Origin: an uncultured Gemmataceae bacterium
GTDB lineage: Bacteria > Planctomycetota > Planctomycetia > Gemmatales > Gemmataceae
Length of the DNA stretch: 64,000 bases
Reading direction: 5' to 3'
Assembly (NCBI GenBank): GCA_963750165.1
Contig: CAVVPN010000011.1
Span: 1,856,001 to 1,920,000, forward strand
Part shown: piece after piece, positions 33,609 through 61,711 of the stretch
Numbering within the stretch: position 1 is the first letter of the stretch
Layout: each line of letters begins with the position of its first letter
Notes under the pieces: generated by a model
Databases searched by the model: none
Told to the model about the DNA's origin: nothing
What the model saw: only the letters and a program-made list of their open reading frames with translations
Program-made: the position numbers and the translations under genes

Positions 33609-35723
33609 TTACATGCGATCCAGGGTTTCAATCCACATCGCCAGCTTCGACAGCGTGGCCTCATCGAAGTATTCACGGCCGCGGTCGGGCAACTCGAGAT
33701 ACCATGTGGGGAAGCGGCGCTCGATCAGAACCTTCAGGCGGTCACGCAACGCCCGCACGATTGGGTCGCGGCCGCCGCAGGCGATGAAAAACGACAGCCG
33801 CTGGTTGGCCACGTTGTTGCCCGGCTCCAGCGGCGGCACGGCTCCGGTGGTGGCCACGCCGCGGAACAGGTCGCGAGCGCCGAATCCCAGGCTGATCGCC
33901 ATCTGACCGCCGACGCCCATGCCGTGCGCCACGATCCGCTGCCGGTCAATGTTGTACGTCGCCAGCACGTCACGCACCGCCGCGGTCACGATCTCCTGCT
34001 CGCTCGGCACCCAACCGGCGTCCGCCTCGGACTTCGGCCCCAGCACGATGCAGTGGTTGTCGTTGCAAAAGTCCTCCCACATGTCCTTGACTTTCTCGTT
34101 TTCCTCGTCGGTGTACTTGCCCGGCTGGTGCAGCCAGACTACCAGCGCATAGGAGATGTTCGGGTCGTACTTCGGCGGCACGTAGACCCAGTACGGGTGG
34201 TTGCCCGCGGCGTTGGTCCGCTTGAGGAAACCGGTCTTGGGATCCTTCGGCAACGGCTCCTGCTTTTGCGGCTTGATGTTCGGCCCGCTCGTCTTCAGCG
34301 GCGCCTGGGCCTTCATGAGCGTTGTCGGCTCCGGCACCTCCTTCGGCACCACGTACACGCTGGTCAGCGTCGAGCCCGGCATGCCGTCCAGCTGTCCGGT
34401 CAGCACCGCCTTTTGCTTGGCCGCCTTGCGAATCACGTCCAACTTGATTTCCTGGCCGGGCATGGCCGCGTTGAGCCAGTCCAGCATCTGGGCCTGGCCG
34501 CGCTTCTCGCCGGTGAACGCCAGCGCCTTGCCGGCGATGGTGACCTTCGTGATCTGGTCGCCCGCCTTCAGGCCCATCTTGTCGGCCGGGCTTTTCGGAT
34601 AGACGTAGCGCACCAGCACGCCCAGCTCAGGGTCGTCGCGCACCGGCAGGATGCCGAGGTACGGGTGCTGGTACACCGTCTTGTCGCTGACCAGATCGAA
34701 GGTCAATGGCAGCGTGTCGTTGCCGCGCTTCACCTTGAGCGTCACCGAGTCGCCCTCGTACTTGGTGCCGATGGCGTGGCGGATCTGTGCCAGGTTAATG
34801 ACCGCCTTGCCGTCCACCTCCAGGATGGTGTCGCCGGTCTTGACGCCGCCGCGCACCGCCGCGGAGCCCGCCTGCACCGCCGCGACCACCGGGACCGCCC
34901 CGATCTCGTCGCCCTGGTTCTTCAGGGCGACGCCCAGTTCGCCCTTGTGCATGTCCTTGCCCTCCTTGAGCCGCGGCAGCATGGCCAGTACGTCCTCCAT
35001 TGGCACGGCGAAGCCGATGCCGCTGTCGTACCACTCGAAGCCGGCGGTCTCGCCCTCGGTGCGCGGCGAGGCCGGCACGAGGATGCCCTGGACGCGGCCG
35101 CGGATATCGACGAGGGGGCCACCGTAGTTGACCGGCGAAACCTTGGCGTCGGTCTGCACTGCCTTGCCCCAGATGCGATTCAGGGCGCTGATGATGCCGA
35201 TGCTGATCGACGGCGGCGAATCCTTCTTGAGCTTGGCGTCCAGGGTGCGGCCGAGGGCGATGGCCCACTGGCCGACCTTGATGTCCTTCTTGGGGACCAC
35301 CGCCGGCACGGGCAGGCCAGTCTTCTTGACCTTGAGCAGCGTCAGCATGCGCGAGCGGTCGGTGGCGATGCGCTCGGCGACGAGCGGTTCCTCGCCGGGG
35401 ATGATGACCTGAATGGTCTTGGGGTTGTTGATGAAGTTGAAGGCGCTGGAGATGATGTAGCCGTCGGCGCTGACGATGACGCCGGTGGTCGGGCCGATGG
35501 CCTTGGAGAAGGTGACGCCCTTCTTGGCGTCAATGACGACGCGGTCGGTGCCGCCCTGCGTGGTGATCTGCACGACGCTGGGAGCGACCTTGCGCGCCGC
35601 CGCCTTGATCCTGTTTTGGTGCTGCTCGTTGCTGCCGCTGGGCGGCTGGGCCGTCAGCGGCGCCGCTGCCCACAGGCTCGCCAGCAGCAGCCCCAGGGTG
35701 AGTGCGCGTGGCCGGATGAACAT
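33609..35723 (-). CDS. Exported HtrA-like pseudoprotease with two PDZ domains and a C-terminal esterase-like domain
   Basis: Trypsin fold with ISSAFNF / RSRMLTLLK / SPVNYGGP (triad absent); two PDZ; YWVYVPPKYDP...LVVWLH...HGMGVGG. Confidence 0.85.
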   Translation of the reverse strand: MFIRPRALTLGLLLASLWAAAPLTAQPPSGSNEQHQNRIKAAARKVAPSVVQITTQGGTDRVVIDAKKGVTFSKAIGPTTGVIVSADGYIISSAFNFINNPKTIQVIIPGEEPLVAERIATDRSRMLTLLKVKKTGLPVPAVVPKKDIKVGQWAIALGRTLDAKLKKDSPPSISIGIISALNRIWGKAVQTDAKVSPVNYGGPLVDIRGRVQGILVPASPRTEGETAGFEWYDSGIGFAVPMEDVLAMLPRLKEGKDMHKGELGVALKNQGDEIGAVPVVAAVQAGSAAVRGGVKTGDTILEVDGKAVINLAQIRHAIGTKYEGDSVTLKVKRGNDTLPLTFDLVSDKTVYQHPYLGILPVRDDPELGVLVRYVYPKSPADKMGLKAGDQITKVTIAGKALAFTGEKRGQAQMLDWLNAAMPGQEIKLDVIRKAAKQKAVLTGQLDGMPGSTLTSVYVVPKEVPEPTTLMKAQAPLKTSGPNIKPQKQEPLPKDPKTGFLKRTNAAGNHPYWVYVPPKYDPNISYALVVWLHQPGKYTDEENEKVKDMWEDFCNDNHCIVLGPKSEADAGWVPSEQEIVTAAVRDVLATYNIDRQRIVAHGMGVGGQMAISLGFGARDLFRGVATTGAVPPLEPGNNVANQRLSFFIACGGRDPIVRALRDRLKVLIERRFPTWYLELPDRGREYFDEATLSKLAMWIETLDRM

Positions 35724-35742
35724 GGGAAAACCCTCGAAAAAA

Positions 35743-35800
35743 GGATGAAGGATGAAGGATGAAGGATGGCTTTTATTTCATCCTTCATCCTTCATCCTTT
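35743..35800. repeat. Inverted heptamer arrays (GATGAAG)n/(TTCATCC)n
   Basis: ggatgaaggatgaaggatgaaggatg ... tcatccttcatccttcatcc. Confidence 0.85.
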
Positions 35801-35804
35801 TGTT

Positions 35805-36920
35805 TTATGGCGCCTTCGGCTTGGGCTGCGCGCGCAGCTTGAGCCGCACCGTCTCCAGCCGTTCGCCGCGCTGCACCTCCAGAACGACCTCGGTGCCTGG
35901 CCGCGCCGCCCCCATGATGTCGCGGAAGGCGCGGATGCTCGGCACCAGTTCGCCGTCGATGTACACGATCAAATCGTCCGGCCGCAGGCCCTTCTCGGCG
36001 GCCGGCGAACCGGGGATCACTTCCTCGATGTACGGCGGCGTGACGCTGACGGAGTTCGGCACCAGCACGATGCCGTGGAAGCCGCCCGCGTTCTTGTCGC
36101 GGGCCTTGACGCCGCTGCTCTGGCGATACTTGCCCGCGATGGCCTCCTTGACAAAGGTCGGGATGTCCACCGTCGCCTTGACCAGTTCGCCCTTGTCGTT
36201 TTCGCGGGTGATCTCGGTTTTGGCCTGGATGGGCACCGCGTAGTTGATCCAGGTGTTGGACAACGTGTGCTTCAGTTCACGGCCGATGATGCCAAGCAGT
36301 TCGCCCTTGTACGTGGTCACGACGCCGCCGGCAGCGCCGGGGTTGCACATCACCGTGTCGATGAAGTAAACGTCGCCCATGTACGGCGCATCGAAGGCAC
36401 CGCGCTGGCTGCGCAGGTCGGTGTGCGCCGCGACGACGCCGCGCTGCACCGACATCGCCTCGTTGCGTTCGCCGATCTTGAACTGATTGCTGAACGCCAG
36501 CACCCAGTCGCCGGGCTCGGCCATTTTGTTCTTGGCCAGTTTCGGGATGTCGAAGTATTTGAGGAAGCTGACCTCGCCGTCAATCTTGAGCATGGCCACG
36601 TCGAGTTCCGGCTCGCGGGCGGTGACCTTGGCCGAGTAAATCCGGCCGTCCGAAAGGTGGACCTTGAGGTCGGTGGTGCCCAGGATGTGGTTGTTGACGG
36701 TGAGGATGTGGCCTTCCTTGGAGACGAGGATGCCGGTGCCGTAGGCGGGCAGGCCCTTGAAGCCGCCGGCGCCGAACAGCTTGACCATGCGCTGGTTGAC
36801 CACCTCGGCGGCTGGCGTGAACGCCTCCTGAGCCGCCAGGGGCCGCGGTGCCACGGCGAAGGCGAGGGCGCTCGCCGCCACGGCCAGCAGGGCCCGTGCC
36901 AGGGGGGAAGGTCGGATCAT
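35805..36920 (-). CDS. Exported HtrA-like protein with one PDZ; catalytic Ser replaced by Ala
   Basis: GILVSKEGHILTVNNH, ELDVAMLK, NPGAAGG; PDZ PGSPAAEKGLRPDDLI. Confidence 0.85.
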   Translation of the reverse strand: MIRPSPLARALLAVAASALAFAVAPRPLAAQEAFTPAAEVVNQRMVKLFGAGGFKGLPAYGTGILVSKEGHILTVNNHILGTTDLKVHLSDGRIYSAKVTAREPELDVAMLKIDGEVSFLKYFDIPKLAKNKMAEPGDWVLAFSNQFKIGERNEAMSVQRGVVAAHTDLRSQRGAFDAPYMGDVYFIDTVMCNPGAAGGVVTTYKGELLGIIGRELKHTLSNTWINYAVPIQAKTEITRENDKGELVKATVDIPTFVKEAIAGKYRQSSGVKARDKNAGGFHGIVLVPNSVSVTPPYIEEVIPGSPAAEKGLRPDDLIVYIDGELVPSIRAFRDIMGAARPGTEVVLEVQRGERLETVRLKLRAQPKPKAP

Positions 36921-37044
36921 GGGAGGGTCGTCCTTATGTTGAGGCGGTCCAACTGTTTTCTGCCGCTGGCGGCTTGTGCGCTGCAACCCATCGAACGTGA
37001 GCAGGGTATCAGAGCGCTAAGCCGCAAGCGGCAGAAAAGACTAC

Positions 37045-38910
37045 TCACGGATTCATCGTAACCTTGGTGACGTTCAACGTGCCGTAGTGGCGGGCGCGAC
37101 CGGGGTTGGCCTGGTCGCCGTAGTACACCTGAATGCGGTGCGGCACCTGCCGGCCGCCGACGGCGCGGTAGTCGGACAGGTACACCTCACACGGATCCTC
37201 ATTCTCCTTGAGCCGCGCTTCGAAGCCGGCCAGTTTGCCGTCCTTGCGGTCGAAGAACCACTTGACCAGGTGGGTGCCGATGCCGGTGTTGAGCACGTCG
37301 GTGTCGCCGGGCAACCGCAGCGCCTTGAGGCTCTTCGGCGTGCTGTTGTCGGTGGGCGGCGGATAGAACGGCTCGATGCCGCCGTAGTCGAATTTGCTCT
37401 CGAAGCCCTTGAGGCCCTGGGTCAGCAGCCGTTGATACAGGCTCATGGCCGCGAGCAGACCGCCGCTCTCCTTCGGCTGTTTCAGCACGTCGTCCTGGTT
37501 GGCGTTGAACGGCGCCAGGAAGTATTCCGTTTTCTTGCCCGACTCGATGGTCAGGCGCACGACCGGGACGGGGGTGTTGCCCTGGCCCTCGACCAGTTCC
37601 TTGCCGATCTTCAGCACAAAGACCGACGGCGTGTTGGCCTTGAACAGGTTGATGGTCCCTTCGAGCGTCCAGTTGTCGCCGGTGCCGGCGAAGTTGCCGT
37701 GCTTGCCGAACGCCTCCAGCACGCGGTCGCGCTGTTGCTGGTTGAAGTAATAATTGGCGAACCCCGCTTTGGCCACGTAGAACTTGGCCGCCGGCGAACC
37801 GGCCACGGGCGGCACGGGCGGCGCCGGTTTCTGACCGGGCGTCAGGTCCTTGCGCTGAATGCCCATGAGCCGCACGAGAATTTCCTTGTCCTTCATGCCC
37901 GCCTTGGCGTCCGGCCGGCGGTACTCCAGCGGCACGCGCCAGCCGCGCGGATACAGCCCCATGACGTTCTTGAAGTGGTTGACGCTCGACAGCACCCGGC
38001 CGTCGAGAGACAGCACCTCGTCATCAACGTCCACGCCGCGGCGGAAGACATCGGAGTCTTCCAGAATCGACTGCACCGTCATCTTGGCGAAGCCGTTCTT
38101 GTCGGTCTGCGACACCAGCAGAGCGCCGAGGCTGGCGTGGTCGCTATCGAGGCCGCCGTGCAGGTGGCCGAGGAAGTTCTTGATCTGGTTGATCGAGATG
38201 GCATAGCCGACGCCGGAGTTGATGCGGGCGCGCTTATCGAACGAGCCGCGGCCGTTGATGCCGATGAGTTCGCCTTGCATGTTGAACAGCGGGCCGCCGG
38301 AGTTGCCCGGGTTGATGCTCGTGTCGATCTGGATGCAGTCGGTGTATTCCAGCAGGATACCGGACGGCGGCTGATAACGGTGGACGCCGCTGATGAGGCC
38401 GTAGGTGACGGTTGGCGTGAAGTCGGTGGCCAGCAGGAACGGATTGCCCATCGCCAGCGACCAGTGCCCCTCGCGCACCTTGTCGCTGTCGCCGAGCGGC
38501 GCGAAGGGGAATTGTTGCCCCTCCTTCTTGGGCAGCAGCTTGATGAGCGCCACGTCGCCAACCTTGTCGAGGCCGACGAGCACGGCGTCATAGAGGACGC
38601 CGTCGGGCAGGCCGCACTGCATGGTGGGGCCGGTCGGGGCGACGACGTGGAAGTTGGTCAGGGCGTAGCCGTCCGCGCTGATGAGCACGCCGGAGCCGCC
38701 GCCCTTCTTGCGGTCGTGGGCGAAGACGGCGACGACGGCCGGCCTGACCTTCTCGATAACGGCGACGCGCTCGGCCTCGGCCTTGAGGATGGCGTCGTCG
38801 CCGTCCTGCTGCGTCACCGACCCTTCGGCCAGGCCCAACAGCAGCAGGGCCGTCACGGCAAGGAACAGCGGCAACGTCCAGCGTCCGCGGAATAGCTTGG
38901 TGATGCGCAT
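37045..38910 (-). CDS. Exported HtrA/DegP-like serine protease with intact triad, PDZ and C-terminal extension
   Basis: GSGVLIS..GYALTNFHVV, GDVALIK, IDTSINPGNSGGPL. Confidence 0.9.
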   Translation of the reverse strand: MRITKLFRGRWTLPLFLAVTALLLLGLAEGSVTQQDGDDAILKAEAERVAVIEKVRPAVVAVFAHDRKKGGGSGVLISADGYALTNFHVVAPTGPTMQCGLPDGVLYDAVLVGLDKVGDVALIKLLPKKEGQQFPFAPLGDSDKVREGHWSLAMGNPFLLATDFTPTVTYGLISGVHRYQPPSGILLEYTDCIQIDTSINPGNSGGPLFNMQGELIGINGRGSFDKRARINSGVGYAISINQIKNFLGHLHGGLDSDHASLGALLVSQTDKNGFAKMTVQSILEDSDVFRRGVDVDDEVLSLDGRVLSSVNHFKNVMGLYPRGWRVPLEYRRPDAKAGMKDKEILVRLMGIQRKDLTPGQKPAPPVPPVAGSPAAKFYVAKAGFANYYFNQQQRDRVLEAFGKHGNFAGTGDNWTLEGTINLFKANTPSVFVLKIGKELVEGQGNTPVPVVRLTIESGKKTEYFLAPFNANQDDVLKQPKESGGLLAAMSLYQRLLTQGLKGFESKFDYGGIEPFYPPPTDNSTPKSLKALRLPGDTDVLNTGIGTHLVKWFFDRKDGKLAGFEARLKENEDPCEVYLSDYRAVGGRQVPHRIQVYYGDQANPGRARHYGTLNVTKVTMNP

Positions 38911-40832: not shown

Positions 40833-41939
40833 CTACTTGCGCTGCAACTCAGCGTCGCGAATCCGCCGGAAGTAATCCTCGAACACCTGGCGGTGCTGCG
40901 GGCTCATGCCGTCGATCAGGTCGTAAATCTCACGACTGATGCGCTCCTGCTCGGCCGCCGGCAGGTTGCCCCAGCCGTCGATCATCTTGCGGACGCGGGC
41001 CGGATCGACCTTGCCCTTGCCGCTCTGACCGCCCAGCTTGCTATCCTTCATCGGCGATTTCGGCTGACCGGCCTGGTTGCCGGGCTGGTCGCCGTCGCCG
41101 GGCTGGCTGCCGTCGGGGCACTGGCCGCCGTTGGGCTGACCGGGCTGGCCCTGGCTCTGCGACTTGGCCTTGTTTTCCATCTCCTTGATGAGTTCGTCCA
41201 GGCGAGCGATGATGTCGCGCTGGATTTCCTGGGTCTGCGGGCCGCCGCGGGCCAGCTCCAGCCGCCGCTCGACGTTATCCATCTTGCGCGCGATGGCCGA
41301 CAGGTCCTTTTCCTTCCAGGTCTGCATATCCAGCAGCATCAGCGCCCCGACCGTCTTGAAACGTTCGGGAGCGTCAATGGCCTGGCCGAGCAGCCGCAGG
41401 ATGGTCCCGCGGGCCTCGTTCTTCTGCAGCAGGGCGTGCTCGCAGACGGCGCGGTGGAACAGGTACGCGGCCGGATCGACCACACCATTCACATCGACGG
41501 TCTTGAGCAGGTCCAGCGCCTCCTCATGAACGCGGCGGTTCGACAGCGACCGCGCATAGGCCAGCGCCAGGTTGTCGCGGAAGAACTTGTCGGCCTTGGC
41601 GTTCTTGAAGAATGGATCGACCTCCTTGGGAGCCGGCGCCTGCGCGTCGCGGGCCTCGGCCAGCAGGCGGGCCGCCGTGGCGTCACCGGCCTCGAAGGTC
41701 GCGGCCATCCGTTCCAGAACGGTGGCGTCCTGGTTCTTCCAGATGGTCGCGAACTGTTGCAGCTTGGCGGCGTTGTTGCCAACCGCCGCCTTGAACCACG
41801 TTTGTGCCTTGGCCTGGGCGACCTCGGGGCTCATCCCCTCCAGAGCCCGGAAGGCGGGCTTCCTGGCGTCCTGAGCCGAAGTGACCCCGCCCAGCAGGGC
41901 GAGGACGGCCAGGCTCGCGAGCCTGTAGTGCAGCTTCAC
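40833..41939 (-). CDS. Exported helical hypothetical protein with Q/G/P-rich linker
   Basis: Signal peptide; YLFHRAVCEH; MDNVERRLEL; WGNLP...FEDYFRRI. Confidence 0.85.
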   Translation of the reverse strand: MKLHYRLASLAVLALLGGVTSAQDARKPAFRALEGMSPEVAQAKAQTWFKAAVGNNAAKLQQFATIWKNQDATVLERMAATFEAGDATAARLLAEARDAQAPAPKEVDPFFKNAKADKFFRDNLALAYARSLSNRRVHEEALDLLKTVDVNGVVDPAAYLFHRAVCEHALLQKNEARGTILRLLGQAIDAPERFKTVGALMLLDMQTWKEKDLSAIARKMDNVERRLELARGGPQTQEIQRDIIARLDELIKEMENKAKSQSQGQPGQPNGGQCPDGSQPGDGDQPGNQAGQPKSPMKDSKLGGQSGKGKVDPARVRKMIDGWGNLPAAEQERISREIYDLIDGMSPQHRQVFEDYFRRIRDAELQRK

Positions 41940-41942
41940 TGG

Positions 41943-44138
41943 TCAGTCTCCCTTGGCAATGCGGTTAGTGATTTCGAAAATCCGTTCCTGACGGTTGGAG
42001 AGTTCACGCAGATCGCGGCGGATGGGCGAAGTGTCAGCCTGTTCGCCCTCGTAGGTCTTGCCATACAGCTCGGTGCGGGCGTTGACACGCACCTGCATGG
42101 CCCGGACCATCTTCAACTCCTGGATCTTGTTCAGGAGTTTCGGGTCCGCCTGGGGCGGCGGCTGGCCGTTGGACGGCGGCGACGGCTTCTGCTCCTTCTG
42201 CTTCAGTTCTTTCTGCAGCGCCTTGATCATTTCGTCGAGCGTGTCAATGATGTCCTGTTCGATGGCGATGGTGATGCGCATATCCTTCTCGATCAGCTTC
42301 GCCTCCTTGCGCGGGTCCATCGACTTCAGCTTGCGTGCCACACTCTTCATGTCCTCGCGCACCTGCTGGAAGACTTCGGGGAACGCCACCGCGGAGCCTT
42401 CCGCTTCGAGCAACTCAATCGCCTTGGTCGCCTCGACAACAATCTTCATCTCATCGTCGGACTGCTTGAGCAGATCGAGGGTGTCGGTGCGATCCGGTTT
42501 CTTGTCGTTATGGCTATCAATGGACAGGGCGGACGCCTTGGTTTCCTTCTGCACGTCCTCCTGCATCTTCTTCATCTGCTTGCAGCGCGCGATCAGGGTT
42601 TCGAGCAGTTGCTTCTGCTCCTCCTCGCGCAGTTGCCGCAACAATTCTTCCAGCTTCTGCTTGGCGAGCTTCAGGTTATCGACGGCCTTGTCAATGTCGT
42701 CCTTGGCCGGCTTCTTGTCGTTCTTGCCAAGTTTCTTCTCGGCGTCCTTCTGCTTGACGATGGCGTCATCGACGTGCCGCTGCGGATCCTTCTTCTGCGG
42801 CTGCTGGTTGTCGGCCTTGGGGCTGTCCTTCTTGCTGGAGCCCTGGTCGTCCTGGCTCTCGCCACCGGGCTTGGGCTGGCCCTGACCCTGGCTGCTCTTG
42901 CCGCTCTTGGCCTGGCCCTGGCTGCTCTTGCTGGCCTTGCTGTCGCCGCTCTTGGACTGCGACTGCTGGCTTTTCTTATCGCCGCCCTGCTGGCCCTGCT
43001 TCGCGGAGCCTTGCTTCTTGTCGCCCCCCTGCTGGCCTTCCTTCGCCGAGCCTTCCTTCTTGTTCTTGTCGCCGTCGCCGGCCTTCTTCTCATCCTGCTT
43101 GGTCTTCAGGCTGCTCTTCTGCTCATCGCCTTCCTTCTTCTTGCCACCGTCCTTGGCCTCGCCCTCCTTGCCGTTGCCGTTCTTGCTCTCCTTGGACTGG
43201 CCGCTCTTGCTCTCGGAGCCCTTGCCGTCCTTGGACTGGCCGGACTTGCTCTCGGAGCCCTTGCTGCTCTTGCTGTCGCCGGGCTTGCTCTCCTTGCCGG
43301 GCTTGCTGTCCTTGCCGCCCTGCTTCGACTGGCCCGGTTTGCTGTCTTTTTTATCGCCCTGGTTCTTGGCGTCGCCGGGCTTGGACTCGCCGGACTTGTT
43401 CTCCTTGCCGGCGTCCTTCGACTGGCCCTTATCGCCATCGCCCTTGGCCTCCTTGGCCTGGCTCTTGTCGTTCTTGGCCTCGTTGCCCTGGCCGTTCTTG
43501 TCGTTCTTATCGCCCTTGTCGCCCTTCTTTTCGTTGGCGAGCTTCTTGGCGAATTCCTTGGTGGCCTGGGTCACCTCACGCTGGTTCTCCTGGATCTGCT
43601 TCGGGTCGAGGCCGATTTCCACCTGGCCCTTGACGACCTGCTCCTTGCGGATCAGCCGGTCGAGTTCCTTGATCTTCGCCTCCAGGCTTAGCTTCTCTTC
43701 CCTGTGGTTGACGAGCTTCTTGCCGCCGCCTTCGAGCAGGTCCAGCACCTCTTGCAGGTCGCGGGCCAGCTCCTGGCTCTGCTTGATGAGGTCGCCGAAC
43801 TGGCCATCCTTGACGTTGCCGCCCAGGGCCTTGGCGAACTTGGCGAAACGCTCGGTGACGGTGCCTTCGACGCTGCGGTCGAGGGCGGCCTTGAGCTTGG
43901 CGGCGCGTTCCTTGTCAGCGGCACTGCCGCCGGCGAGGCGGTCGTGCAGCCCCTGCAGCGCCTCCTCGAACTTGCGGTAGCGCTCCTGCAGGACTTTTTG
44001 CCGCTGCGACAGTTCGCGCAACTGCTGGGCGCTTAATGGCTGCTTGTCTTTGGTCTGGCGCGGTTCGCCGGCGTTCAGGGCTGCCGCGACCGTCACGGCC
44101 GCCAACCCCAGGGTCAGGAAACATAAACGACGCAACAT
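41943..44138 (-). CDS. Exported coiled-coil protein with long K/G/S/D/Q low-complexity insert (DUF4175-like)
   Basis: Signal peptide; heptad-rich halves; central ~270-aa GESKPG/GQSK repeats; LLRQLREEE, AVAFPEV, ELKMVRAMQVRVN.RT. Confidence 0.85.
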   Translation of the reverse strand: MLRRLCFLTLGLAAVTVAAALNAGEPRQTKDKQPLSAQQLRELSQRQKVLQERYRKFEEALQGLHDRLAGGSAADKERAAKLKAALDRSVEGTVTERFAKFAKALGGNVKDGQFGDLIKQSQELARDLQEVLDLLEGGGKKLVNHREEKLSLEAKIKELDRLIRKEQVVKGQVEIGLDPKQIQENQREVTQATKEFAKKLANEKKGDKGDKNDKNGQGNEAKNDKSQAKEAKGDGDKGQSKDAGKENKSGESKPGDAKNQGDKKDSKPGQSKQGGKDSKPGKESKPGDSKSSKGSESKSGQSKDGKGSESKSGQSKESKNGNGKEGEAKDGGKKKEGDEQKSSLKTKQDEKKAGDGDKNKKEGSAKEGQQGGDKKQGSAKQGQQGGDKKSQQSQSKSGDSKASKSSQGQAKSGKSSQGQGQPKPGGESQDDQGSSKKDSPKADNQQPQKKDPQRHVDDAIVKQKDAEKKLGKNDKKPAKDDIDKAVDNLKLAKQKLEELLRQLREEEQKQLLETLIARCKQMKKMQEDVQKETKASALSIDSHNDKKPDRTDTLDLLKQSDDEMKIVVEATKAIELLEAEGSAVAFPEVFQQVREDMKSVARKLKSMDPRKEAKLIEKDMRITIAIEQDIIDTLDEMIKALQKELKQKEQKPSPPSNGQPPPQADPKLLNKIQELKMVRAMQVRVNARTELYGKTYEGEQADTSPIRRDLRELSNRQERIFEITNRIAKGD

Positions 44139-44477
44139 GAGAACGGTCCTCCCGAGACCGGGGCGTTCGCGTCAGGCGCCCGGGGTTGATCTGCCCCGGT
44201 GGCCACTGGCGCCCCCATAATTTGCTGCATTCGCCAGGTGGTCGGCTCGCAGGCTGCCCCCCATGGGATGGGATCCTGCGGCCCACCGCTCACGCCGCTT
44301 GGATTCCTCCCGCCGCGTAAGCCTACGTCCCTTAAGACGAACCGCCTTACCCTTCCCAACATCTTAACCCCTGGAACGGCGGTTTGTCACGGCTGAAGTC
44401 AACTTTTCTGTTTTTCCTTGCAACTCCGGCGCACGGACGCGGCCCGCGCGAAACGTAAACGGGGTCAGCTGGGACTT

Positions 44478-44616
44478 CGTTGTGGCTTGGTCTCCGGACC
44501 AAGCGACGGCCCCAGACCGAAGGTCTCCCGGCTGCAACCAAGAGGAGACCGTGCCACAACGAGCGTCCGCGGGCCGGGCGGCACGGTCAGGAGACCGTGC
44601 CACAACGAGCGTCCGC
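44478..44616. repeat. REP-like cluster: two 28-bp direct copies and one inverted copy
   Basis: aggagaccgtgccacaacgagcgtccgc at 44543-44570 and 44589-44616; cgttgtggcttggtctcc at about 44478-44497. Confidence 0.8.
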
Positions 44617-44637
44617 CAGCTCTTTGTCCGGCAGCGC

Positions 44638-47600
44638 TTATTTGCCCTCCAGAATCTTCAAGATTTCCTCCTCGCGCTGCCGCCGCGCCCGATCAACTGC
44701 CGGCGTCGCCTCGCGCTGGCTCTCCACGATCTGCCGCAGCGCCTGGATCAGGGCCCGGTCGTCCTCCAGGTCCTTCATGGCAGTGAGCACGGCGGTCAAC
44801 TTTTTGGACAGGTCGTTGACCCGGGCGCTGGCGAGTTCGGCGCGCTGGCGGTACAGCGGCAGGTTCTTGCCGATCTCCTTATCCCACAAATCGCCCTCGT
44901 CCTTGCCAACCTTCTTGAGCGCCGCCTGCAGCGCGTCGCGGAAGTCGGTCAGCACGATGCCCGTCTTGGCCGCCTCGCCGCCCGGCCGTTCCGACAGCTT
45001 GCCCGTCAACTGCTCGTCCAGCAGGGCGCCGAGGTCGTCCCGGGTCAGCCGCTGGTTGCACACCGACCGCAGCGGGAAGATGATCTTTTCCTTCTCGTCG
45101 GTCTGGCGCTTGTCGGTGAAGTTGTTGATCTCCATCTCTTCCAGGATGCCCTCGCAGCCGGCCAGCACGCCGCGGGCCACGTCACCCGCCTCGCGCACAT
45201 GGGCGATGGCCTGGTCGAGCCGGGCCAGCGTCGCCGCCACATCCGGCCGCGACCCCTCCTTCAGGGCTGCCGCCTCGCTGTCCAGGTTGACGCGGCGATC
45301 CTCCAGCCGGTCCACGACCTCCTTGAGCGACCGCCGCATCTCGCTCTTCTTGAGCAGCATCAGGTCGTACAACTCCGTCTCGGAGATGATGAGGAACGTG
45401 AACGGCCCGGCGTCCGGCGTGCCGCGGGCGCCCGGCTCAACGTTGCTATCCTTGGCCCGGATGGACAGTTTCAGTTCGTAGTGCAGCTCTTCCTTCTCAA
45501 CCTTCAGGCCGAACTGGGCCACGTTGAAGGGGGGCTCGTTCTCCAGGTCGTGCTGCTTGAACTTGTCCAGGACGAACTGCGGCCGCTTGCCCAGTGCCTT
45601 GCTCAACTGGGCCTTCTCGTCCGTCTTGCCGTCAAGGCGGATGAGCAGGTCGGCCAGCACGGGCAACGGCTCCTTGCGCAGCCGCTTCTCCAGCTCGTCG
45701 CGCTGGCCCTTGGCCACGCTGCTGACGGCCAGCACGTCGCGGGTGAACGCCCGGAACTTCTCGGCGGTCTGGAGGTTGTCCAGGCTGCCTTTTTTCACGT
45801 CGTCGAACACCGTCTGGATCACGATCTGTGCCGGCGCCAGCTTCGCCTTCAGGGCGGTGAGCTTTTCCGCATCGTCGCTGACCTCGTGGTAGCGCCCGGC
45901 CACGTCGCGGAGCTGATCGGCGCTGATGTTGGCGGCCAGCAGCCGGTCCAGCAGCAACCGGTGGTCCGGGTGGACCTGGAGCAGCAGCGCCAGTTCCCCG
46001 GCGGTCACGTCGTCCGCATATTTTTCGGTGTAGATGCGCTTGAAGGTCGGCATCTCCTGGATGCCCTTGCCCTTGATGACGGCCCGGCGATAGGTCATGT
46101 TGGCCAGCCACGCCAGTTCGTTGAAGGCGTAGCCCGGCGGCGCGGGCGGAGTGCGCAGGAAGATGCGGCCCACGCGGCCCACGGCCTCCTTGACCTTCTC
46201 CACATCGGTCAGTTTCTGCGGCTCCTTATCCTTGCCCGGGTCCTTGGCTTCAGGCTCGACGCTCGCCACCTTGGACTTCGGCGTCTCGATCTCGCGCTCC
46301 TCGTACTCGTAGATCCAGGCGGCGCTGGTCAGGCAGCGGTCGTCGCTGAGCTTGCCCTTCCACGGGAAACTGGCCTTGGCGGTGATGAGGCGGCGGTTCG
46401 GGCTCTTGGGGTCGTGCCGCAACCGCGGCGGCAGCGCCACATCGGTCACCAGCGCGGGGCTGTCATCGACCGGCAACAGGATGAAGCGACGCTTGCCCTT
46501 GACGCCATCGACATCGCGGAACACGAAGTCGATTTCCGTCTTCTGCGTCACATCGTTCAGCCGGGCCTCGAAGGTGCGGCTGTCCAGCAACCGGACCTTC
46601 GGCAGCACCGCCAGCACGGCACCCTCGGGCTTCTCATCCTGAACGATCTTCACGGAGTCGCGCAGGTCGCGGGCGGCCGTGCCGCGGATGACGACGTTGC
46701 TGCCGGATGCCAGGTTGATGGTGCTCTCGGTGCCGCCCCTGGACACCGGCACGCCGCGCAGGATTTGCCGCTGGCCGGCCAGCTGCTCCTCCTTGCCGAC
46801 CAGGCGGTAATACAGATACGCCGGCTCCTCCTTGTCGGCGACGATCAAATCAAGGTCGGGCGGCGCCAGCAGCGTGATCTGCTTGCCGGGCGTATAGAAG
46901 TCCTCGGCGTTGAAGCTGAGGCGCGACGACTCCTTGAGAGCGTTGAGGTTCAGGGTGTACTTGTTGAACTCCTTGCGTGCCAGGCCCTTGGTGAGCTTGT
47001 TCTGCTTGCCGCGGGCGATGGCGGTGACCTCGCTGGGCGGTTCCAACTCGCGCAGCGTCCGCTCCATGCCGGGGTCAGCGGCGGTGGTGCTCACCGCGTC
47101 GAACAGAGCCTTGAAGGCGCGATACTGCGGCTCGTGGCGGTCGATCAGCGCTCGTTTGACGGTCTTGTGATCGACCTGCAACTCGATCTTGTCGAGCGTC
47201 CAGGTGTGCCAGTCGAGCAACTCGTCGATGGCCTCGCGCAGCTGCACGTCACGGCCGCGGGGGCTGTCGAGCAGGGCCCGGACCTCCGGCATGCTGAGTT
47301 CGGCGCGGATCTGGCTGCTGGTCTTGCCCTGCCAGTTCCACTCGGCGGGGATCATGCCGTTGGGCACGCGGGCGGGCAGGTCGTCCAGGTCGAAGTACCA
47401 GTGGCCCCAGTCGCGCGGCAGGTCCACCGCCAGGACGCTGGCGTCAACCAGGTTGCTGTCCTGCAAATCCTTGTATTTCAGGGCCCGCCAGCCGATCGGG
47501 GCGTCGCGGTCGGCGATGACGTAGCGGATCGAGCGCACGATCACGTCGGGCCGCGGTTCCTCGGCGGTGTAGTCGCGCGACACGCGCACCTCACCGTCAC

Positions 47601-48357
47601 GGTTGGCCTGCAACCGGACGAACTCCAGGTGGGCGTTGCGCGGCCAGTAGGTGTCCATGAGCAGCAGGTTGCGCTCGGCCCAGATGGCCGCGGTGTGGTT
47701 GAAGCGGATGAAGTAATGGCCGACCGGCTGCCCCTCGGCGGCGCAGACGGCCGTGAGCGTGACGAGGTAGACGATCAGGGTGCAGGCCAACACGAAGACG
47801 CCGAGCCAGATCAGGCGGCCCCAGTTGAAGACGCCGCCGACGGGCAGTGTTTCGACGCGCTCGGCGGCCTCGCGGATGGTCTGGTCGATCATGCCTTGCG
47901 AGAAGCCGTAGCGCTCGGCGATCTTCGGGTCGGCCATCTCGACGGCGGTGATAAGGCGGTCGCCCAGTTCGCGCGGGAAGCGGCGCTGCAGCACCAGGGC
48001 CAGGGCGGTATCGCGGAATTCGCGGAGCAGCCGCAGCAGGATTTTCGTGACCACCAGGGCGAGCAGGGCGCCGACGAGCACGACCAGGATGGCGACGCGC
48101 AGCACGTTGGCGGTGCCGCCGCCGGTGGCCTCGTTGAGTTCGTAGGTCCAGTCGAAGGCGAAGAGACGGAAGGCGCCGTAGTCGAGCGCCAGGCCGATCC
48201 AGAACCACAGCGCCAGGAACAGCAGGGCGACGGCGGCGCCCTCCAGCGTGACGTACGTGCGGATGTAGCCGCGCAGTTTTTGCAGCGGATGGCGGACGCG
48301 CAGGTCGGCGTCGCTGCGGTTGAGGATCTTCGGGGGCGGAGTGGTCACGGTCGCCAT
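44638..48357 (-). CDS. Large membrane-anchored protein (3 N-terminal TM, beta-rich middle, coiled-coil tail; DUF4175-like)
   Basis: LQKLRGYIRTYV.LEG, LDY, ALVLQRRFPRELGDRLITAVE, WPR, D.DG, SDD. Start at MATVTT after GGAG. Confidence 0.85.
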   Translation of the reverse strand: MATVTTPPPKILNRSDADLRVRHPLQKLRGYIRTYVTLEGAAVALLFLALWFWIGLALDYGAFRLFAFDWTYELNEATGGGTANVLRVAILVVLVGALLALVVTKILLRLLREFRDTALALVLQRRFPRELGDRLITAVEMADPKIAERYGFSQGMIDQTIREAAERVETLPVGGVFNWGRLIWLGVFVLACTLIVYLVTLTAVCAAEGQPVGHYFIRFNHTAAIWAERNLLLMDTYWPRNAHLEFVRLQANRDGEVRVSRDYTAEEPRPDVIVRSIRYVIADRDAPIGWRALKYKDLQDSNLVDASVLAVDLPRDWGHWYFDLDDLPARVPNGMIPAEWNWQGKTSSQIRAELSMPEVRALLDSPRGRDVQLREAIDELLDWHTWTLDKIELQVDHKTVKRALIDRHEPQYRAFKALFDAVSTTAADPGMERTLRELEPPSEVTAIARGKQNKLTKGLARKEFNKYTLNLNALKESSRLSFNAEDFYTPGKQITLLAPPDLDLIVADKEEPAYLYYRLVGKEEQLAGQRQILRGVPVSRGGTESTINLASGSNVVIRGTAARDLRDSVKIVQDEKPEGAVLAVLPKVRLLDSRTFEARLNDVTQKTEIDFVFRDVDGVKGKRRFILLPVDDSPALVTDVALPPRLRHDPKSPNRRLITAKASFPWKGKLSDDRCLTSAAWIYEYEEREIETPKSKVASVEPEAKDPGKDKEPQKLTDVEKVKEAVGRVGRIFLRTPPAPPGYAFNELAWLANMTYRRAVIKGKGIQEMPTFKRIYTEKYADDVTAGELALLLQVHPDHRLLLDRLLAANISADQLRDVAGRYHEVSDDAEKLTALKAKLAPAQIVIQTVFDDVKKGSLDNLQTAEKFRAFTRDVLAVSSVAKGQRDELEKRLRKEPLPVLADLLIRLDGKTDEKAQLSKALGKRPQFVLDKFKQHDLENEPPFNVAQFGLKVEKEELHYELKLSIRAKDSNVEPGARGTPDAGPFTFLIISETELYDLMLLKKSEMRRSLKEVVDRLEDRRVNLDSEAAALKEGSRPDVAATLARLDQAIAHVREAGDVARGVLAGCEGILEEMEINNFTDKRQTDEKEKIIFPLRSVCNQRLTRDDLGALLDEQLTGKLSERPGGEAAKTGIVLTDFRDALQAALKKVGKDEGDLWDKEIGKNLPLYRQRAELASARVNDLSKKLTAVLTAMKDLEDDRALIQALRQIVESQREATPAVDRARRQREEEILKILEGK

Positions 48358-48455: not shown

Positions 48456-51400
48456 TTACGCCAGTTTCATCAGTTTGCGCATCAACCACTCCAGCGACAG
48501 CAGGCCGACGACCGCCAGCAGCACCCACGACATGTGCAGCGGCAGCAGGGCCCATTCGGGCTGGTAGATGTTGTTGGCCAGGTACAGGCCCAGCGAATAC
48601 ACGCCGGTGAGGGCCACGGTCACGATGGCGGCGATCCAGCGGCCGATCACCAGCAGGATCAGCACCGCCACCGCCGCCACCACGGCCGGCACCAGCAGCA
48701 GCACGTTGTAAGCCGACATCACCATGTACAGTTCCAGGTCGCCGTTCAGGCCCCAGATGGAGGCGACGACGATCAGCAGCGCCAGCGTCACCGCCAGGGT
48801 GGCGCCGCCAACGACCGCCAGCGCCTGCCAGCGGCCGCTGATGAGCAGCAGCAGACACATGAAGCCGCCCAGCACCGCCGGGATCAGCAGCAGGCCCCAC
48901 GCCGGCACAAACACCGGCTCATCGGCTGCAGGCCGCCAGCCCTCGTCCCACATCTCCTTGAAGGCCCCCTTCGTCTCCTGCCGCTCGGGCGCCTGCTTTT
49001 CGATGAACTCGTACAGGTTCCGGGCCTGCTCCTCGTCGAGGAACAGCCGATCCGCCGCCGACACCTTGCCGGGGTCCACGTTGTCGATGCGCCGCTGCGA
49101 CTCCTGCAATATCTGCTCCAGCCTGGCCTTCTTGGCGGCCTTGACCTCCTTGTCGCCGGACAGCCCTTCGAGCAGCGAACGGTAGTCCGTGGACATCTGG
49201 TACAGGCTGTAGAAGTTCGGCCGCGGATTGCCGGTCTCGACGTTGAGCGGCAGCACCACGAACGAGTGGCTGATCTTCTCGCGCTCGCCGTCGGGCACCT
49301 GAATGTCCACGACGTAGACGCCGGGGGTCTTGACCTCCAGGGTGTTCGTGAAGATGCCGTCGTCGGTACTGGCGTCCTTGGCGGTCAGGTTGAACGGCAC
49401 GCCGTCCTTCTTGCCTGCCTCGGCCGGCGCGTCCAGCCGGCGCAGGGTGCCCTGCGGCCGGATGAGCCGCTTGACCAGCTGGCCGGCGGCGTCGCGCACC
49501 TCGGCCTCGATCTTGACGGGGCCGACGAGGTACTCCTCGGCCATGAAAATCTTGCCCTGCTTGCGCGTCTCGCTGCTGGTGCTGACGAAGGCCGCCAGCC
49601 GCAGCCAGAATTTTTGGTGGAACTGGGCGCTCAGGTGCCGCAGTCGCCACGACTCCTCGGAGCCGATGTAGAACGACTTGCCCTTGCCCTGCGGCTGGCC
49701 GTAGACGAAGTACGGCATACCGCCCTCGTGCTCGAACTCGGCGACCACCTTGGCGAAGGCGCTCTTCTCCATGATCGGCTGCGCCCGATAGAAGCCGCGC
49801 TTCTCGTCCGGGTCGGCCGGATGGAAGAACTGATCCCAGCTCTTGTCGCCGTCGAGGTAGATGAACGGATAGTCCTTGGAGTTGAGGAAGAACAGCGGCT
49901 GCGGCGTGACGCGCTGCACGGGCGGCTTGCCCTTGAAGACGCGGTCGGCGTCCTCATCGCGGCTGTCCTTGAGGGTGACCGGCAGCAGCGACAGCAGCGG
50001 CTTGAGCTTCTCGGCGTCCTCGCCGGGCGTGGCCAGCTTGTCGGTGTTGGTGTCGCCGGCCACGAAGATGAGGCCACCCTTGTCCTCGGTCGCCCAGCGG
50101 TGCAGCAACTCGATCTGCCGCGCCTCCAGCGCCGCCCAGTTGAAGTCGAAGGCGATGATGAGGTCGTAGCGCTTCAGGTTGTACGGGTCGGTGACCTCGG
50201 AGCGGTCGGTGTCCTTTTTGTCCTTTTCCTTGTCGCCGCCAGTCTTCTTGGGCGCCTCGAACTTGTTGGGGAACTGCGTCAACAGGTTCTGCGGGTCGAT
50301 ATCCTGGTTGATGTCCTCGCCGTCGGCGCCCTGCAGGTAGATGGCCAACTTGACGCGCTCGGCCTGGTGCTCGCGGTAGAACATGGTGCGCGTGAACTGG
50401 TAGTCCTTGGACGGGCCGCCGGCGATCATGAGGATCGACAGCCGTTTGTCGGAGATTTGCACGACCTTGCCCGGTTCGGTGACGTGCTCGGGGTCCGCGA
50501 AGTTCTCGCGCGGGTGGCGTGGCACCTTGACGATGAAACGCCACTGCCCCTGCAGCTTGCCCTCGTGGTCGGCCTTGATGTCCGCGACGTTGACCAGTTT
50601 GGCCAGTTCGGTGAGCGGCACATTGAACTCGACCTCCGCGGCCGGGAACTCGCCGGTGCTCAGCTTGACCTTCTGCGAGGCGATGGGCAGCGGCTTGACG
50701 GCGGGGTCCTTGACCATGGCGCCCTTGGGGTCGCGGATGGGCTCGCCGGTGTTGGGGTCGCGCAGGTGTTCGAGGTCATTCTGATACTTGTCGGCGATCT
50801 TCGTGACGAACAGCTGGACGGTGATGGTTTCGCCGGGCAGGCGGTCGCCGAAGATGGGCGCGATCACCTTGAAACTCTCGTCGTCGGGCCGCACGGTGGT
50901 CGGAGCGCGGAGCGGGTTGAGGCGGATGCGCGTCGGCTGATTGTATTCGCCGATGCCGACGGTCCAGACCGGCACCAGCTTGCGCGGGTTGTTGGCCAGG
51001 TTGACAATCTGCCGGTACGCTTCCTCGCTGCCCTTGTTGTTCTGGCCGTCGCCGATGACGATGACGGCCTGGACGTTGTTATTGCTCTCGCGCTGCATGA
51101 GCCGCAGCACGGCACCGTAGTCGGTGCCGTTGAGCATCTGCTCGTAGCGGACCTTGCGCTCGGCGATGTACTGCTCGCGCTCGGCGCCCTTGAGGTCGTC
51201 GCGCGGCCGGATGGTGCGGGGGTCGAGCGTCAGCCAGCGCTTCCAGTCCGCGGCGGCCCAGGTGTGATTACCCTGGAAGGTGACGCTTTCCTCGTCGGCG
51301 ACGCCGCCGAAGCGGTAGGCGACCAGCGGCGCCCTGCCCTCGAGACGCTGCACCAGGCTGAGCTTCTTGCCGCTCTTGTCGGCGAAGGGCGTGGTCAGGA

Positions 51401-51944
51401 GCTTGACGACCTTTTCCTGGCGCGTGGGCCGGAGGTTCGGGTTCTGACCGGGCTGGGGCAGGTCGTCCTGGTGGTTCATGCTGGCGGACACGTCGAACAG
51501 CAGGAGGATGCGGGCGGGCGTCTCGTAGCTGTTGTAGTATTGCCAGCCTGGCAGCAGGAACACCAGGGCGAGGATGGCGTAGACGCAGCAGCGCAGCAGG
51601 CCGAGGAAGGCCGCCAGCACGGGGTGGATGGTCTGGGCGTCGCGCTTGTACATCAGGACGATGTAGACGAACGCCACGGCCAGGACCGGGGCGAGGATGA
51701 GCCACCAGCCGAACAGGTCCTTGAACAGGTAGCCGAGGGCGAGGTAGGGCACCGCCAGGACGAGGACGACGCCGCCAAAGATGCCGAGGGTGGCCAACCT
51801 GTTTTCGCGACGGAACAGGACAATCAGGCCGACGACCGCCAGCGCGAACAGCACCGGGAACAACAACTCCCAGCCGCCGAGGCCTTCCTGCAGACGGCGG
51901 AAGAGAAATTCACTGCTCTGGGTGGTCTTGGTATCGGATAACAT
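48456..51944 (-). CDS. Membrane protein with vWA domain and glutamine-amidotransferase-like domain
   Basis: N-terminal TMs; MIDAS FDVSASM...TD...IGDG; YDLII.FD, GGLIFVAG, LLPV, ESWR, FW; C-terminal TMs ending EWLMRKLMKLA. Confidence 0.88.
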   Translation of the reverse strand: MLSDTKTTQSSEFLFRRLQEGLGGWELLFPVLFALAVVGLIVLFRRENRLATLGIFGGVVLVLAVPYLALGYLFKDLFGWWLILAPVLAVAFVYIVLMYKRDAQTIHPVLAAFLGLLRCCVYAILALVFLLPGWQYYNSYETPARILLLFDVSASMNHQDDLPQPGQNPNLRPTRQEKVVKLLTTPFADKSGKKLSLVQRLEGRAPLVAYRFGGVADEESVTFQGNHTWAAADWKRWLTLDPRTIRPRDDLKGAEREQYIAERKVRYEQMLNGTDYGAVLRLMQRESNNNVQAVIVIGDGQNNKGSEEAYRQIVNLANNPRKLVPVWTVGIGEYNQPTRIRLNPLRAPTTVRPDDESFKVIAPIFGDRLPGETITVQLFVTKIADKYQNDLEHLRDPNTGEPIRDPKGAMVKDPAVKPLPIASQKVKLSTGEFPAAEVEFNVPLTELAKLVNVADIKADHEGKLQGQWRFIVKVPRHPRENFADPEHVTEPGKVVQISDKRLSILMIAGGPSKDYQFTRTMFYREHQAERVKLAIYLQGADGEDINQDIDPQNLLTQFPNKFEAPKKTGGDKEKDKKDTDRSEVTDPYNLKRYDLIIAFDFNWAALEARQIELLHRWATEDKGGLIFVAGDTNTDKLATPGEDAEKLKPLLSLLPVTLKDSRDEDADRVFKGKPPVQRVTPQPLFFLNSKDYPFIYLDGDKSWDQFFHPADPDEKRGFYRAQPIMEKSAFAKVVAEFEHEGGMPYFVYGQPQGKGKSFYIGSEESWRLRHLSAQFHQKFWLRLAAFVSTSSETRKQGKIFMAEEYLVGPVKIEAEVRDAAGQLVKRLIRPQGTLRRLDAPAEAGKKDGVPFNLTAKDASTDDGIFTNTLEVKTPGVYVVDIQVPDGEREKISHSFVVLPLNVETGNPRPNFYSLYQMSTDYRSLLEGLSGDKEVKAAKKARLEQILQESQRRIDNVDPGKVSAADRLFLDEEQARNLYEFIEKQAPERQETKGAFKEMWDEGWRPAADEPVFVPAWGLLLIPAVLGGFMCLLLLISGRWQALAVVGGATLAVTLALLIVVASIWGLNGDLELYMVMSAYNVLLLVPAVVAAVAVLILLVIGRWIAAIVTVALTGVYSLGLYLANNIYQPEWALLPLHMSWVLLAVVGLLSLEWLMRKLMKLA

Positions 51945-51956
51945 GCGTTCCTCACA

Positions 51957-52035
51957 TAGTCATTAGTCATCAGTCATTAGTCATTAGTTTCAAAGAACCT
52001 TCCTTCGGCCGGTTCTTGCTAATGACTAATGACTA
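51957..52035. repeat. Gene-less inverted (TTAGTCA)n heptamer element
   Basis: tagtcattagtcatcagtcattagtcattag-tttca...-ctaatgactaatgacta. Confidence 0.85.
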
Positions 52036-55000: not shown

Positions 55001-55217
55001 CGGTGAGCAGCACCAGCAGGCAGCGCAGCGCCAGCAGCAGCAGTTGCTCGATGATGAGCCGGCGGCGGCTGCGCTTCTGGGCCTTGAGCAGGAACTCCAT
55101 CGCGGCCCAGCGCAGCCGCTTGAAGCGCATGCGGTTAATCAGGTGGATGATGATCGGCGCACTGATGAGCGCGCCGCCGGCCGCGACGTATCCGGGATTT
55201 GTGAATAACTCAATCAT
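52033..55217 (-). CDS. BatA-N/vWA membrane protein, frameshifted near 53390
   Basis: PIIIHLINR.RFKRLRWAAMEFL...LLLALRCL; LDDTLSM...LSDF; GGGVAFFLG. Continues in ORF 52033..53388 (GKGRV, NVD.REGNL, LIAEQALA). Confidence 0.85.
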
Positions 55218-55324
55218 GGGTCGTCCGTTCAGGAAGCGGGCAGGAGCGCAAATCGATTCAGTTGGTTCAGGATGTTCACGAGACGATCCGCCTTCTTTTC
55301 TGCCGCTTGCGGCAGCACCAGCCA

Positions 55325-56251: not shown

Positions 56252-56297
56252 GGGTGTGGGTTCCTTGTTGCGTGCGTGGGGCGCGGGTCAATCGTCG

Positions 56298-56765
56298 TCA
56301 CGGGCCTGTTTGCTGGAGGGAATGCGGCACGGGTTCTTCCTGGGCGTGCGCTGGCGCCACCTGCACGGGCACCGGGGTGATCGTGAAGTGGTGCTCCGAG
56401 GGCGTATTCATGAAGGACACCTTCCAGGACTGCGGACACACCTCCGGGTGCGTGTTCTCGTTCAAGAGGATGAGCCCTTCGCCTCCGTAAAGCGTTCCTT
56501 GCAGGCTGCCGCTTTCGGTGCAGAGAACACTTAACCGAGCACAGAGCATCCGCAACTTGGTTTTGGCCCTGCCTAACGGTGCCACCCAGGCCGGTTGGCC
56601 CGTTGTTTCGAAACGCAATCCGGTATCAGCGTCGCGAGTGCCACGGACTTCCCCAACTTCCCCAGACAGGGCCAACAAGTCATCAAGGAAACGCACCAGG
56701 CCGCCTTGATGATCGTCGGCCAGGTGCGTCAGCACCAACTCGCGGATTCGGCTCTCGGCGTTCAT
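56298..56765 (-). CDS. Hypothetical protein resembling a stand-alone GspE/PilB N2 (PAS-like) domain
   Basis: VRFLDDLL...LRFETTG...LCARLSVLC...GEG...WKVSFMNT; ATGA overlap with the upstream gene. Confidence 0.6.
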   Translation of the reverse strand: MNAESRIRELVLTHLADDHQGGLVRFLDDLLALSGEVGEVRGTRDADTGLRFETTGQPAWVAPLGRAKTKLRMLCARLSVLCTESGSLQGTLYGGEGLILLNENTHPEVCPQSWKVSFMNTPSEHHFTITPVPVQVAPAHAQEEPVPHSLQQTGP

Positions 56766-57123: not shown

Positions 57124-57176
57124 CGCTGTTCACTCGCATCCATGACGATCGCGCAAACAACCATGTGCCATGCCCC

Positions 57177-57912: not shown

Positions 57913-57965
57913 GACACACCCAGGAGAGTTAGGTAACACTCGGCAACCAATCACCACGCTGTTTC

Positions 57966-58009
57966 CGCCGTTGGCGGCGTAGCGCGCTGCCGCTACGCCG
58001 CCAACGGCG
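57966..58009. terminator. 19-bp-stem hairpin just downstream of MoxR
   Basis: cgccgttggcggcgtagcg-N6-cgctacgccgccaacggcg. Confidence 0.6.
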
Positions 58010-58017
58010 CGTCCAAA

Positions 58018-59133
<1,116 letters not shown>

Positions 59134-61628: not shown

Positions 61629-61651
61629 CTTGATAAAACTCGATTGATCCT

Positions 61652-61703: not shown

Positions 61704-61711
61704 GGCTGGGT

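Follow-up and report, generated by a model that had tools for sequence, protein, structure and literature searches.

Proteases of the HtrA type, such as DegS, DegP and DegQ (MEROPS S1C), are all homo-oligomers as far as they have been characterised, and each trimer has three active sites (PMC11642142, a 2024 review). In DegS, Arg178 on loop L3 of a subunit acts on the following subunit's LD loop (Pro161, Tyr162 and Leu164), activation also involves Thr167 and Gln191, and the L1 loop becomes ordered (PMC11642142); HTRA1 needs the equivalent L3 arginine (PMC5666011). Here we analyse three adjacent HtrA paralogues, which we call A, B and C, encoded at positions 33,609 to 38,910 of a 64,000-nucleotide stretch of DNA, referred to as a whole as the window, from an uncultured Gemmataceae bacterium (Planctomycetota; assembly GCA_963750165.1, contig CAVVPN010000011.1, positions 1,856,001 to 1,920,000). 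They resemble DegS, DegP and DegQ in combining a chymotrypsin-type domain and PDZ with an N-terminal export-like stretch, and A holds both the catalytic triad and the residues of the DegS activation cluster. The difference is that two of the three linked planctomycete paralogues are dead and carry complementary halves of that cluster. A first-pass annotation, made from the letters of the window, had suggested that the three might form a 1:1:1 heterotrimer with one active site and two pseudoprotease subunits; natural triple fusions, a model of a single chain and the complementary loss of activation residues all support that suggestion indirectly, and we consider such a heterotrimer probable.

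Other systems share single traits with the trio. The MamE/MamO pair likewise joins an active HtrA to a conserved HtrA pseudoprotease within one cluster, a type of pairing that arose several times (PMC4794232), but it has two partners, whereas the planctomycete trio has three. Plant DEG7 and fungal Ynm3 carry an active and a degenerate HtrA domain in one chain, as do the A+B fusions described below, yet they are eukaryotic, have two such domains, homotrimerise through the dead ones and have no third paralogue (PMC3194040); nor is their layout of two protease domains and four PDZ domains in one chain that of the window, where the three genes are separate. The passages considered on Deg5/Deg8 (PMC3640471) contain no occurrence of 'hetero'. 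A literature search, with most subscription journals outside its coverage, returned no paper that treats this trio or describes an HtrA heterotrimer in nature. The trio is real and conserved, and it is undescribed in the literature that we found. Mixed HtrA trimers reportedly had to be made artificially so far (PMC9852955).

Catalytic residues and conservation of the three paralogues

Trypsin_2 exceeds its curated Pfam cut-off in A, B and C alike, and the best sequence matches of all three among solved structures are HtrAs. PDZ is likewise over cut-off in B, which has one such domain, and in C, which has two; the single, divergent PDZ of A scores 23.1 bits against a cut-off of 27, and the alignments of A to DegP extend through the PDZ1 region. 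Catalytic positions were read from alignment to E. coli DegS and DegQ and to solved HtrAs. A (37045..38910, minus strand, 621 amino acids (aa)) has the complete triad, His88-Asp119-Ser204, together with the L3 arginine, Arg178. In B (35805..36920, minus strand, 371 aa) His78 and Asp107 remain, a state that is not general in its family, and the nucleophile position is taken by Ala197, while C (33609..35723, minus strand, 704 aa) is devoid of triad residues, with Phe95 or Asn96 in the place of the histidine (which of the two hinges on a one-residue gap in the alignment), Met126 and Tyr200. C does keep Arg183 and Gln190, carried on an L3 loop of six residues. The boundaries of the three reading frames, the intact triad of A, the Ser-to-Ala exchange in B and the loss of all three residues in C are as the first-pass annotation had read them. 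Each protein has a single N-terminal hydrophobic stretch and none further along, and a signal peptide is our reading of that stretch. The gap between B and C (35741-35799) is filled by two short, facing 7-nt tandem arrays, and a hairpin is possible there.

All three proteins stay below the NCBIfam cut-offs for DegP, DegQ, DegS, MamE and MamO. Against the DegP/DegQ/DegS equivalogs, A, B and C score 188, 115 and 157 bits with TIGR02037 (cut-off 416) and at most 105 bits with TIGR02038 (cut-off 423); the MamO profile NF040961 gives at most 46.5 bits (cut-off 800), the NCBIfam cut-off for MamE is likewise far from reached, and none of the three has a TauE match. Nor are they the sole HtrA-like genes of their genome, which has 22 Trypsin_2 matches, 19 of them over cut-off. 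Their closest relatives lie in metagenome-assembled genomes of Gemmataceae and other Planctomycetota.

Two parts of the proteins, the tail of A and a hydrolase domain of C that is devoid of its nucleophile, are lineage-specific additions. The tail of A (250 aa; window 37045-37800) is missing in some lineages and matches nothing, the best E being 0.029 for Pfam and 0.66 for solved sequences; a weak lead from the Atlas, to be taken as a lead only, points to a lipoprotein-sorting-like (outer-membrane) cluster (score 0.90), 18% of whose members carry DUF6503. The C-terminal domain of C is alpha/beta-hydrolase-like by a match to NCBIfam NF050058 that stays below cut-off (E 2e-13). It has Gly603 at the position of the nucleophile elbow, a column in which serine is outside the five commonest residues across 128 sequences. 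Queried with C, the Atlas returned generic trypsin clusters and yielded no range.

Conservation was followed in a set of 52 planctomycete loci, the window and 51 others, and in a larger set of 127 A, 136 B and 265 C proteins from homologue searches, of which the A and B rows all come from fusions and are a biased sample. Eleven loci were omitted from the conservation counts (L008, frameshifted; L015-L022, L088 and L092, not orthologues); the larger set leaves out P0001 and P0011 (apparent frameshifted gene calls), P0016 (an unrelated multi-PDZ protein) and P0280-P0297 (18 cluster members). The complete order A-B-C is found in 44 of the 52 loci; five of the eight incomplete ones are cut at contig ends, and in the other three (G141, G108 and G189) the operon is split with the remaining genes elsewhere in the genome, so that all three are still present. 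The triad of A is intact in 46/46 orthologues and in 126-127 of the 127 proteins of the larger set. Serine is absent from all 49 B orthologues, where Ala, Gln, Tyr, Gly, Pro, Phe or Asn occupies the position, and every C (47/47) has tyrosine there. The larger set has serine in 4/136 B and 0/265 C, the position in C being Tyr in 262 and Phe in 3; of the four serine-bearing B proteins, the two compared in the histidine region both lack the histidine. That B might regain catalysis through its retained His and Asp was considered and ruled out, as only 14/50 B proteins keep the histidine. The same triad pattern throughout the phylum argues against chance or decay.

Purifying selection on the dead copies, which the first-pass annotation had put forward as a check along with the absence of a regained GNSGG motif, is borne out, and that motif reappears in no orthologue (serine in 0/49 B and 0/47 C). 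Ratios of nonsynonymous to synonymous substitution (dN/dS; Nei-Gojobori, closest pairs) are 0.058, 0.078 and 0.059 for A, 0.044, 0.104 and 0.21 for B, and 0.093 and 0.193 for C, whose two pairs are shared with A and B; in more distant pairs the ratio climbs to 0.68, where saturation at high GC depresses dS. These values show that B and C are under purifying selection, somewhat weaker than that on A. Both also evolve faster than A, with longer branches and a mean column identity of 37% and 42%, respectively, against 44%.

Activation residues, natural fusions and inheritance of the trio

The activation residues have been lost in a complementary manner: C keeps the sender side, B the receiver side, and A both. 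With numbering checked on E. coli DegS, the sender Arg178 is present in 46/46 A and 47/47 C and in 6/49 B, and the sender Gln191 in 44/46 A, 47/47 C and 1/49 B. Conversely, the receiver residues Asn160 and Gly199 are each present in 46/46 A and 49/49 B and in none of the 47 C, and position 162 is aromatic in 45 A and 48 B. The sender/receiver pattern is the same in the larger set, where all 265 C proteins have both Arg and Gln. The two are spaced by six residues in 264/265 C and by 15-17 in most A. The first PDZ domain of C most often has the loop G/P-x-hydrophobic-G-hydrophobic (36/47, compared with 4/48 B and 0/46 A). A homotrimer of C would then consist of senders without receivers, and one of B of receivers without senders. 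A ring in which C acts on A and A on B would fit this pattern, as it employs every conserved part and leaves only the B-to-C link, which is empty at both ends.

Natural fusions join the same partners. In a set of 389 proteins from the homologue searches, which were aimed at longer relatives, there are 123 A+B, 10 B+C and 4 A+B+C fusions; the last are P0013 (1071 aa), P0164, P0183 and P0165, which is partial, has 6 members and is named Phycisphaerae. The linkers of the triple fusions have no signal-like stretch, and P0013 has one PDZ for each protease domain. Their A domains are mutually 46-61% identical, and P0013 is nearest, among seven proteins compared, to two A+B-only proteins (73-75% identity), which together suggests that triple fusions arose more than once. 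Within the locus set, the junction between A and B is fused in 5/47 cases, that between B and C in 0/47, and four junctions upstream in 0 of 19-32; in the tree described below, starred branches place two of the fused A domains next to relatives that are not fused. In three B+C fusions (L100, L104 and L105) the protease domains are joined by a short linker, without an intervening PDZ. Open frames of 1255-1395 aa were considered as further triple fusions and rejected, the 20 loci fetched comprising 6 A+B fusions and 14 sets of separate genes. As separate observations, two A+B fusions (L053 8282-12847 and L056 1-3471) run into long repeats that look HEAT-like by eye, and a B+C fusion filed under the dinoflagellate Cladocopium goreaui (P0300, on a 7.4 Mb contig) is probably bacterial sequence in the assembly.

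One of the triple fusions was modelled. AlphaFold2, given a 47-row alignment of P0013, returned a mean predicted local distance difference test (pLDDT) of 83.8 and a predicted template modelling score (pTM) of 0.84 over 1071 aa. The best solved chains span only one of the three units (TM-score 0.25 by query length), so that a pTM of this size would imply confident packing among the units. The direction proposed for the ring comes from the residue patterns. The B+C fusion P0012, folded from its single sequence (pLDDT 33.6, pTM 0.21), is uninformative.

A second clade, represented by 16 loci chosen for adjoining weaker A and C matches, has the trio in the order B-C-A in 12 loci; a further locus is truncated past C-A, and in the other three a B+C fusion follows A. 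Its sender residues follow the first clade, with Arg in 15/16 and Gln in 16/16 C proteins (C2), Asn160 absent from them and Gln missing from B (B2). No family is common to the neighbours of these trios (48 scanned). A quick tree of 98 domains, including 11 other HtrA-like domains of the window genome, groups A with A2, C with C2 and B with B2 (Shimodaira-Hasegawa-like approximate likelihood ratio test (SH-aLRT) support of 98, 99 and 89, respectively), apart from the 11 others. From the trio kept in the order B-C-A and from these groupings we conclude that the trio travels as a unit and that its three-way division predates the split of the two clades. Three side observations belong here: one genome (G114; L097 and L098) has two separate B-C-A trios; four loci outside the tree (L088, L092, L019 and L020) have further tandem HtrA-like arrays, some of them pairs of a dead and an active copy; and a contig titled Candidatus Kuenenia stuttgartiensis (L014, 3803-13036) carries A, B and C that group with Gemmataceae, so that it is possibly mis-binned or mislabelled.

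Co-occurrence across genomes tells the same of A and C. Among 201 genomes drawn from the phylum, C matches with at least 364 bits in 40 (next best 253) and A with at least 410 bits in 39 (next best 325), and the two sets of genomes are identical except for one (G159) whose A is cut by contig ends, a count that is partly circular as many of these genomes built the profiles. In 301 genomes of the class to which G107 belongs, drawn for the most part independently, single copies of A occur in 48 and of C in 50, all 48 holding both; these genomes are kin and not independent, so we attach no P value. The two with C beyond these 48 are G266, where B-C begins the contig, and G425, which is taken up below. 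In two genomes with an A+B fusion (G295 and G365) C is not adjacent and is kept elsewhere, and G413 likewise retains C at another place.

A proposed directional heterotrimer and its rivals

How would such a trimer work? We propose that A, B and C are exported and assemble in the periplasm as one trimer with a single active site, in the ring direction C to A to B and back to C, the B-to-C link being the one that lacks both partners. A further step, which we hold somewhat more readily than its contrary, is that this heterotrimer is obligate and directional, with A as the catalyst, C as trans-activator and PDZ sensor and B as a substrate-holding receiver, making it a gated processing enzyme with one site in place of a quality-control protease with three. 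C may serve as activator and ligand sensor of A because it combines the sender set (Arg, Gln, Ser and the six-residue L3) with the most canonical PDZ ligand loop and has lost its own LD/L1 receiver: its PDZ would take a ligand or a substrate end, and its short L3 would hold the LD loop of A in the active state. B, which keeps the LD loop and an Asn-Pro-Gly oxyanion loop and has lost the sender Gln, would close the ring and receive the signal of A, and may grip substrate uncut by means of that oxyanion loop.

Several observations weigh against this proposal. Three of the triple fusions are single-member clusters on contigs of 5-6.5 kb, none was present among the 20 genome loci fetched to find one, and neighbouring genes fuse easily. 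The model of P0013 is supportive but has to be discounted, as HtrA trimers are abundant among the training structures and there was no control chain; AlphaFold2 may pack any three linked HtrA domains in this manner. The statement that B cannot send is not clean, since B frequently has an arginine near the L3 column (in the exact column in 40/136 and two residues earlier in 94/136), and folding could be the reason why C retains its Arg and Gln. Because A holds sender and receiver both, a homotrimer of A is possible. In the second clade, C2 retains Asn197 in 13/16 and Gly199 in 12/16, and 4/16 C2 proteins retain the serine, without the histidine. One genome, G425, 92% complete, has C while A and B were not found in it. 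The main caution comes from MamO, whose dead protease domain, monomeric in its crystal and metal-binding, is insufficient to activate MamE (PMC4794232), and DEG7 demonstrates that a dead HtrA domain within a fusion can serve another assembly (PMC3194040).

The first rival to be weighed is that A is an ordinary homotrimer, while B and C form oligomers of their own that work beside it on the same clients in the envelope without cutting them, as chaperones or holdases, much as inactive DegP variants do. Inactive HtrAs do suppress aggregation, every HtrA characterised so far is a homo-oligomer (PMC11642142), A keeps every residue that a homotrimer requires, and shared clients would account for co-retention and operon order as well. 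What this explanation leaves unaccounted for is the invariant sender Arg and Gln of C in a protein without a receiver of its own, and the receiver of B kept without the sender Gln; it is also ill-suited to the A+B+C chains and to the short-linker B+C fusions. We consider it unlikely.

A second rival, to which we give a similarly small chance, takes B and C as repurposed binding modules, that is, monomeric sensors or scaffolds that touch A or proteins of the neighbouring cluster away from the canonical trimer interface. MamO, which acts on MamE through its TauE domain (PMC4794232), and DEG7, trimerising via its dead domain, are precedents, and both the invariant aromatic residue of C at the nucleophile position and its nucleophile-less hydrolase domain, found in many genomes, could be ligand sites. 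The residues conserved in B and C, however, form matching halves of the canonical L3-LD interface, both clades have three partners, and many lineages without the extra domains of A and C still keep the trio. That B and C are functionless, decaying duplicates is very improbable: their faster evolution is what decay would give, but the idea is already contradicted by closest-pair dN/dS (0.04, 0.10 and 0.21 for B; 0.09 and 0.19 for C), invariant family-specific residues, co-occurrence, phylum-wide age, retention of the genes after break-up of the operon and the detection of the Tuwongella immobilis orthologues by mass spectrometry (PMC8567305).

If the heterotrimer is real, it would be a natural exception to the homo-oligomer rule, with two of its subunits dead, and one that extends across much of a phylum. 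Activation from subunit to subunit, a standing question, would become directly testable, since evolution has here removed single links, whereas a mutation in a homotrimer changes all three at once. The natural A+B+C fusions would be single-chain versions in which each inter-subunit link could be mutated singly. The trio is, moreover, a handle on a large, unstudied gene cluster of the planctomycete envelope.

The neighbouring gene cluster

The trio closes a long cluster of genes on the same strand. The gene that usually neighbours A on its upstream side encodes an NPCBM-domain protein (PF08305; 39438..40640, minus strand) and is present in 32 of the A-holding loci. Between it and A the window has a four-helix-bundle gene (TIGR02436; 38940..39353, minus strand), with oppositely oriented 7-nt tandem arrays on either side (38926-39440); because the NPCBM gene directly adjoins A in related loci, among them L005, L014, L065 and L071, the TIGR02436 gene is read as an insertion and as lying outside the system. 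Further upstream are three conserved genes whose family is unassigned (368, 731 and about 1230 aa; 40833..48330, minus strand), with no Pfam or NCBIfam match over cut-off and with homologues in matching order in related loci. The head of the cluster (48456..62842, minus strand) comprises vWA-like, BatA-like, DUF58 and MoxR AAA+ genes and three prenyltransferase/squalene-cyclase-like genes.

The order of this cluster is identical in T. immobilis (GMBLW1_00830-00710; PMC8567305 Table S3), where GMBLW1_00730, 00720 and 00710 are taken as the counterparts of A, B and C from their sizes, their Pfam content and the places where they lie, and are all given as SP(Sec/SPI) in the same table. Mass spectrometry gave each of the three a low intensity above zero, in no more than 1 or 2 of the 9 runs, whereas the DegQ-like protein of highest abundance reached about 1e9 (PMC8567305). 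The trio proteins of T. immobilis are thus produced, at a low level.

Low abundance and a single site would favour limited processing over bulk degradation, and under the heterotrimer reading we envisage a gated, scarce protease that cuts an envelope substrate to a limited extent. Gene linkage suggests that this substrate probably belongs to the adjacent MoxR/vWA/BatA-type cluster, as one of its clients or products. The likeness to MoxR-vWA-peptidase operons, proposed to form a membrane-proximal degradation system, lies in the linkage of MoxR AAA+ and vWA genes to a peptidase (PMC3495828). Their peptidase is a membrane transglutaminase-like domain, whereas the HtrA trio is read as exported; and MoxR is linked in those operons, whereas no homologue of the MoxR cluster was found in the 16 loci of the second clade, which tempers the choice of client.

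Some further features of the window were recorded. A helicase-like gene with ResIII/DEAD matches (27814-30330) is followed by a 401-aa gene without a Pfam match. The BatA-like gene (52033-55211) is spread over two frames, by a frameshift or an assembly error, its T. immobilis counterpart being a single 102 kDa protein. The three prenyltransferase/squalene-cyclase-like genes stand in tandem (59416-62842), and the one closest to MoxR seems to be frameshifted near its end.

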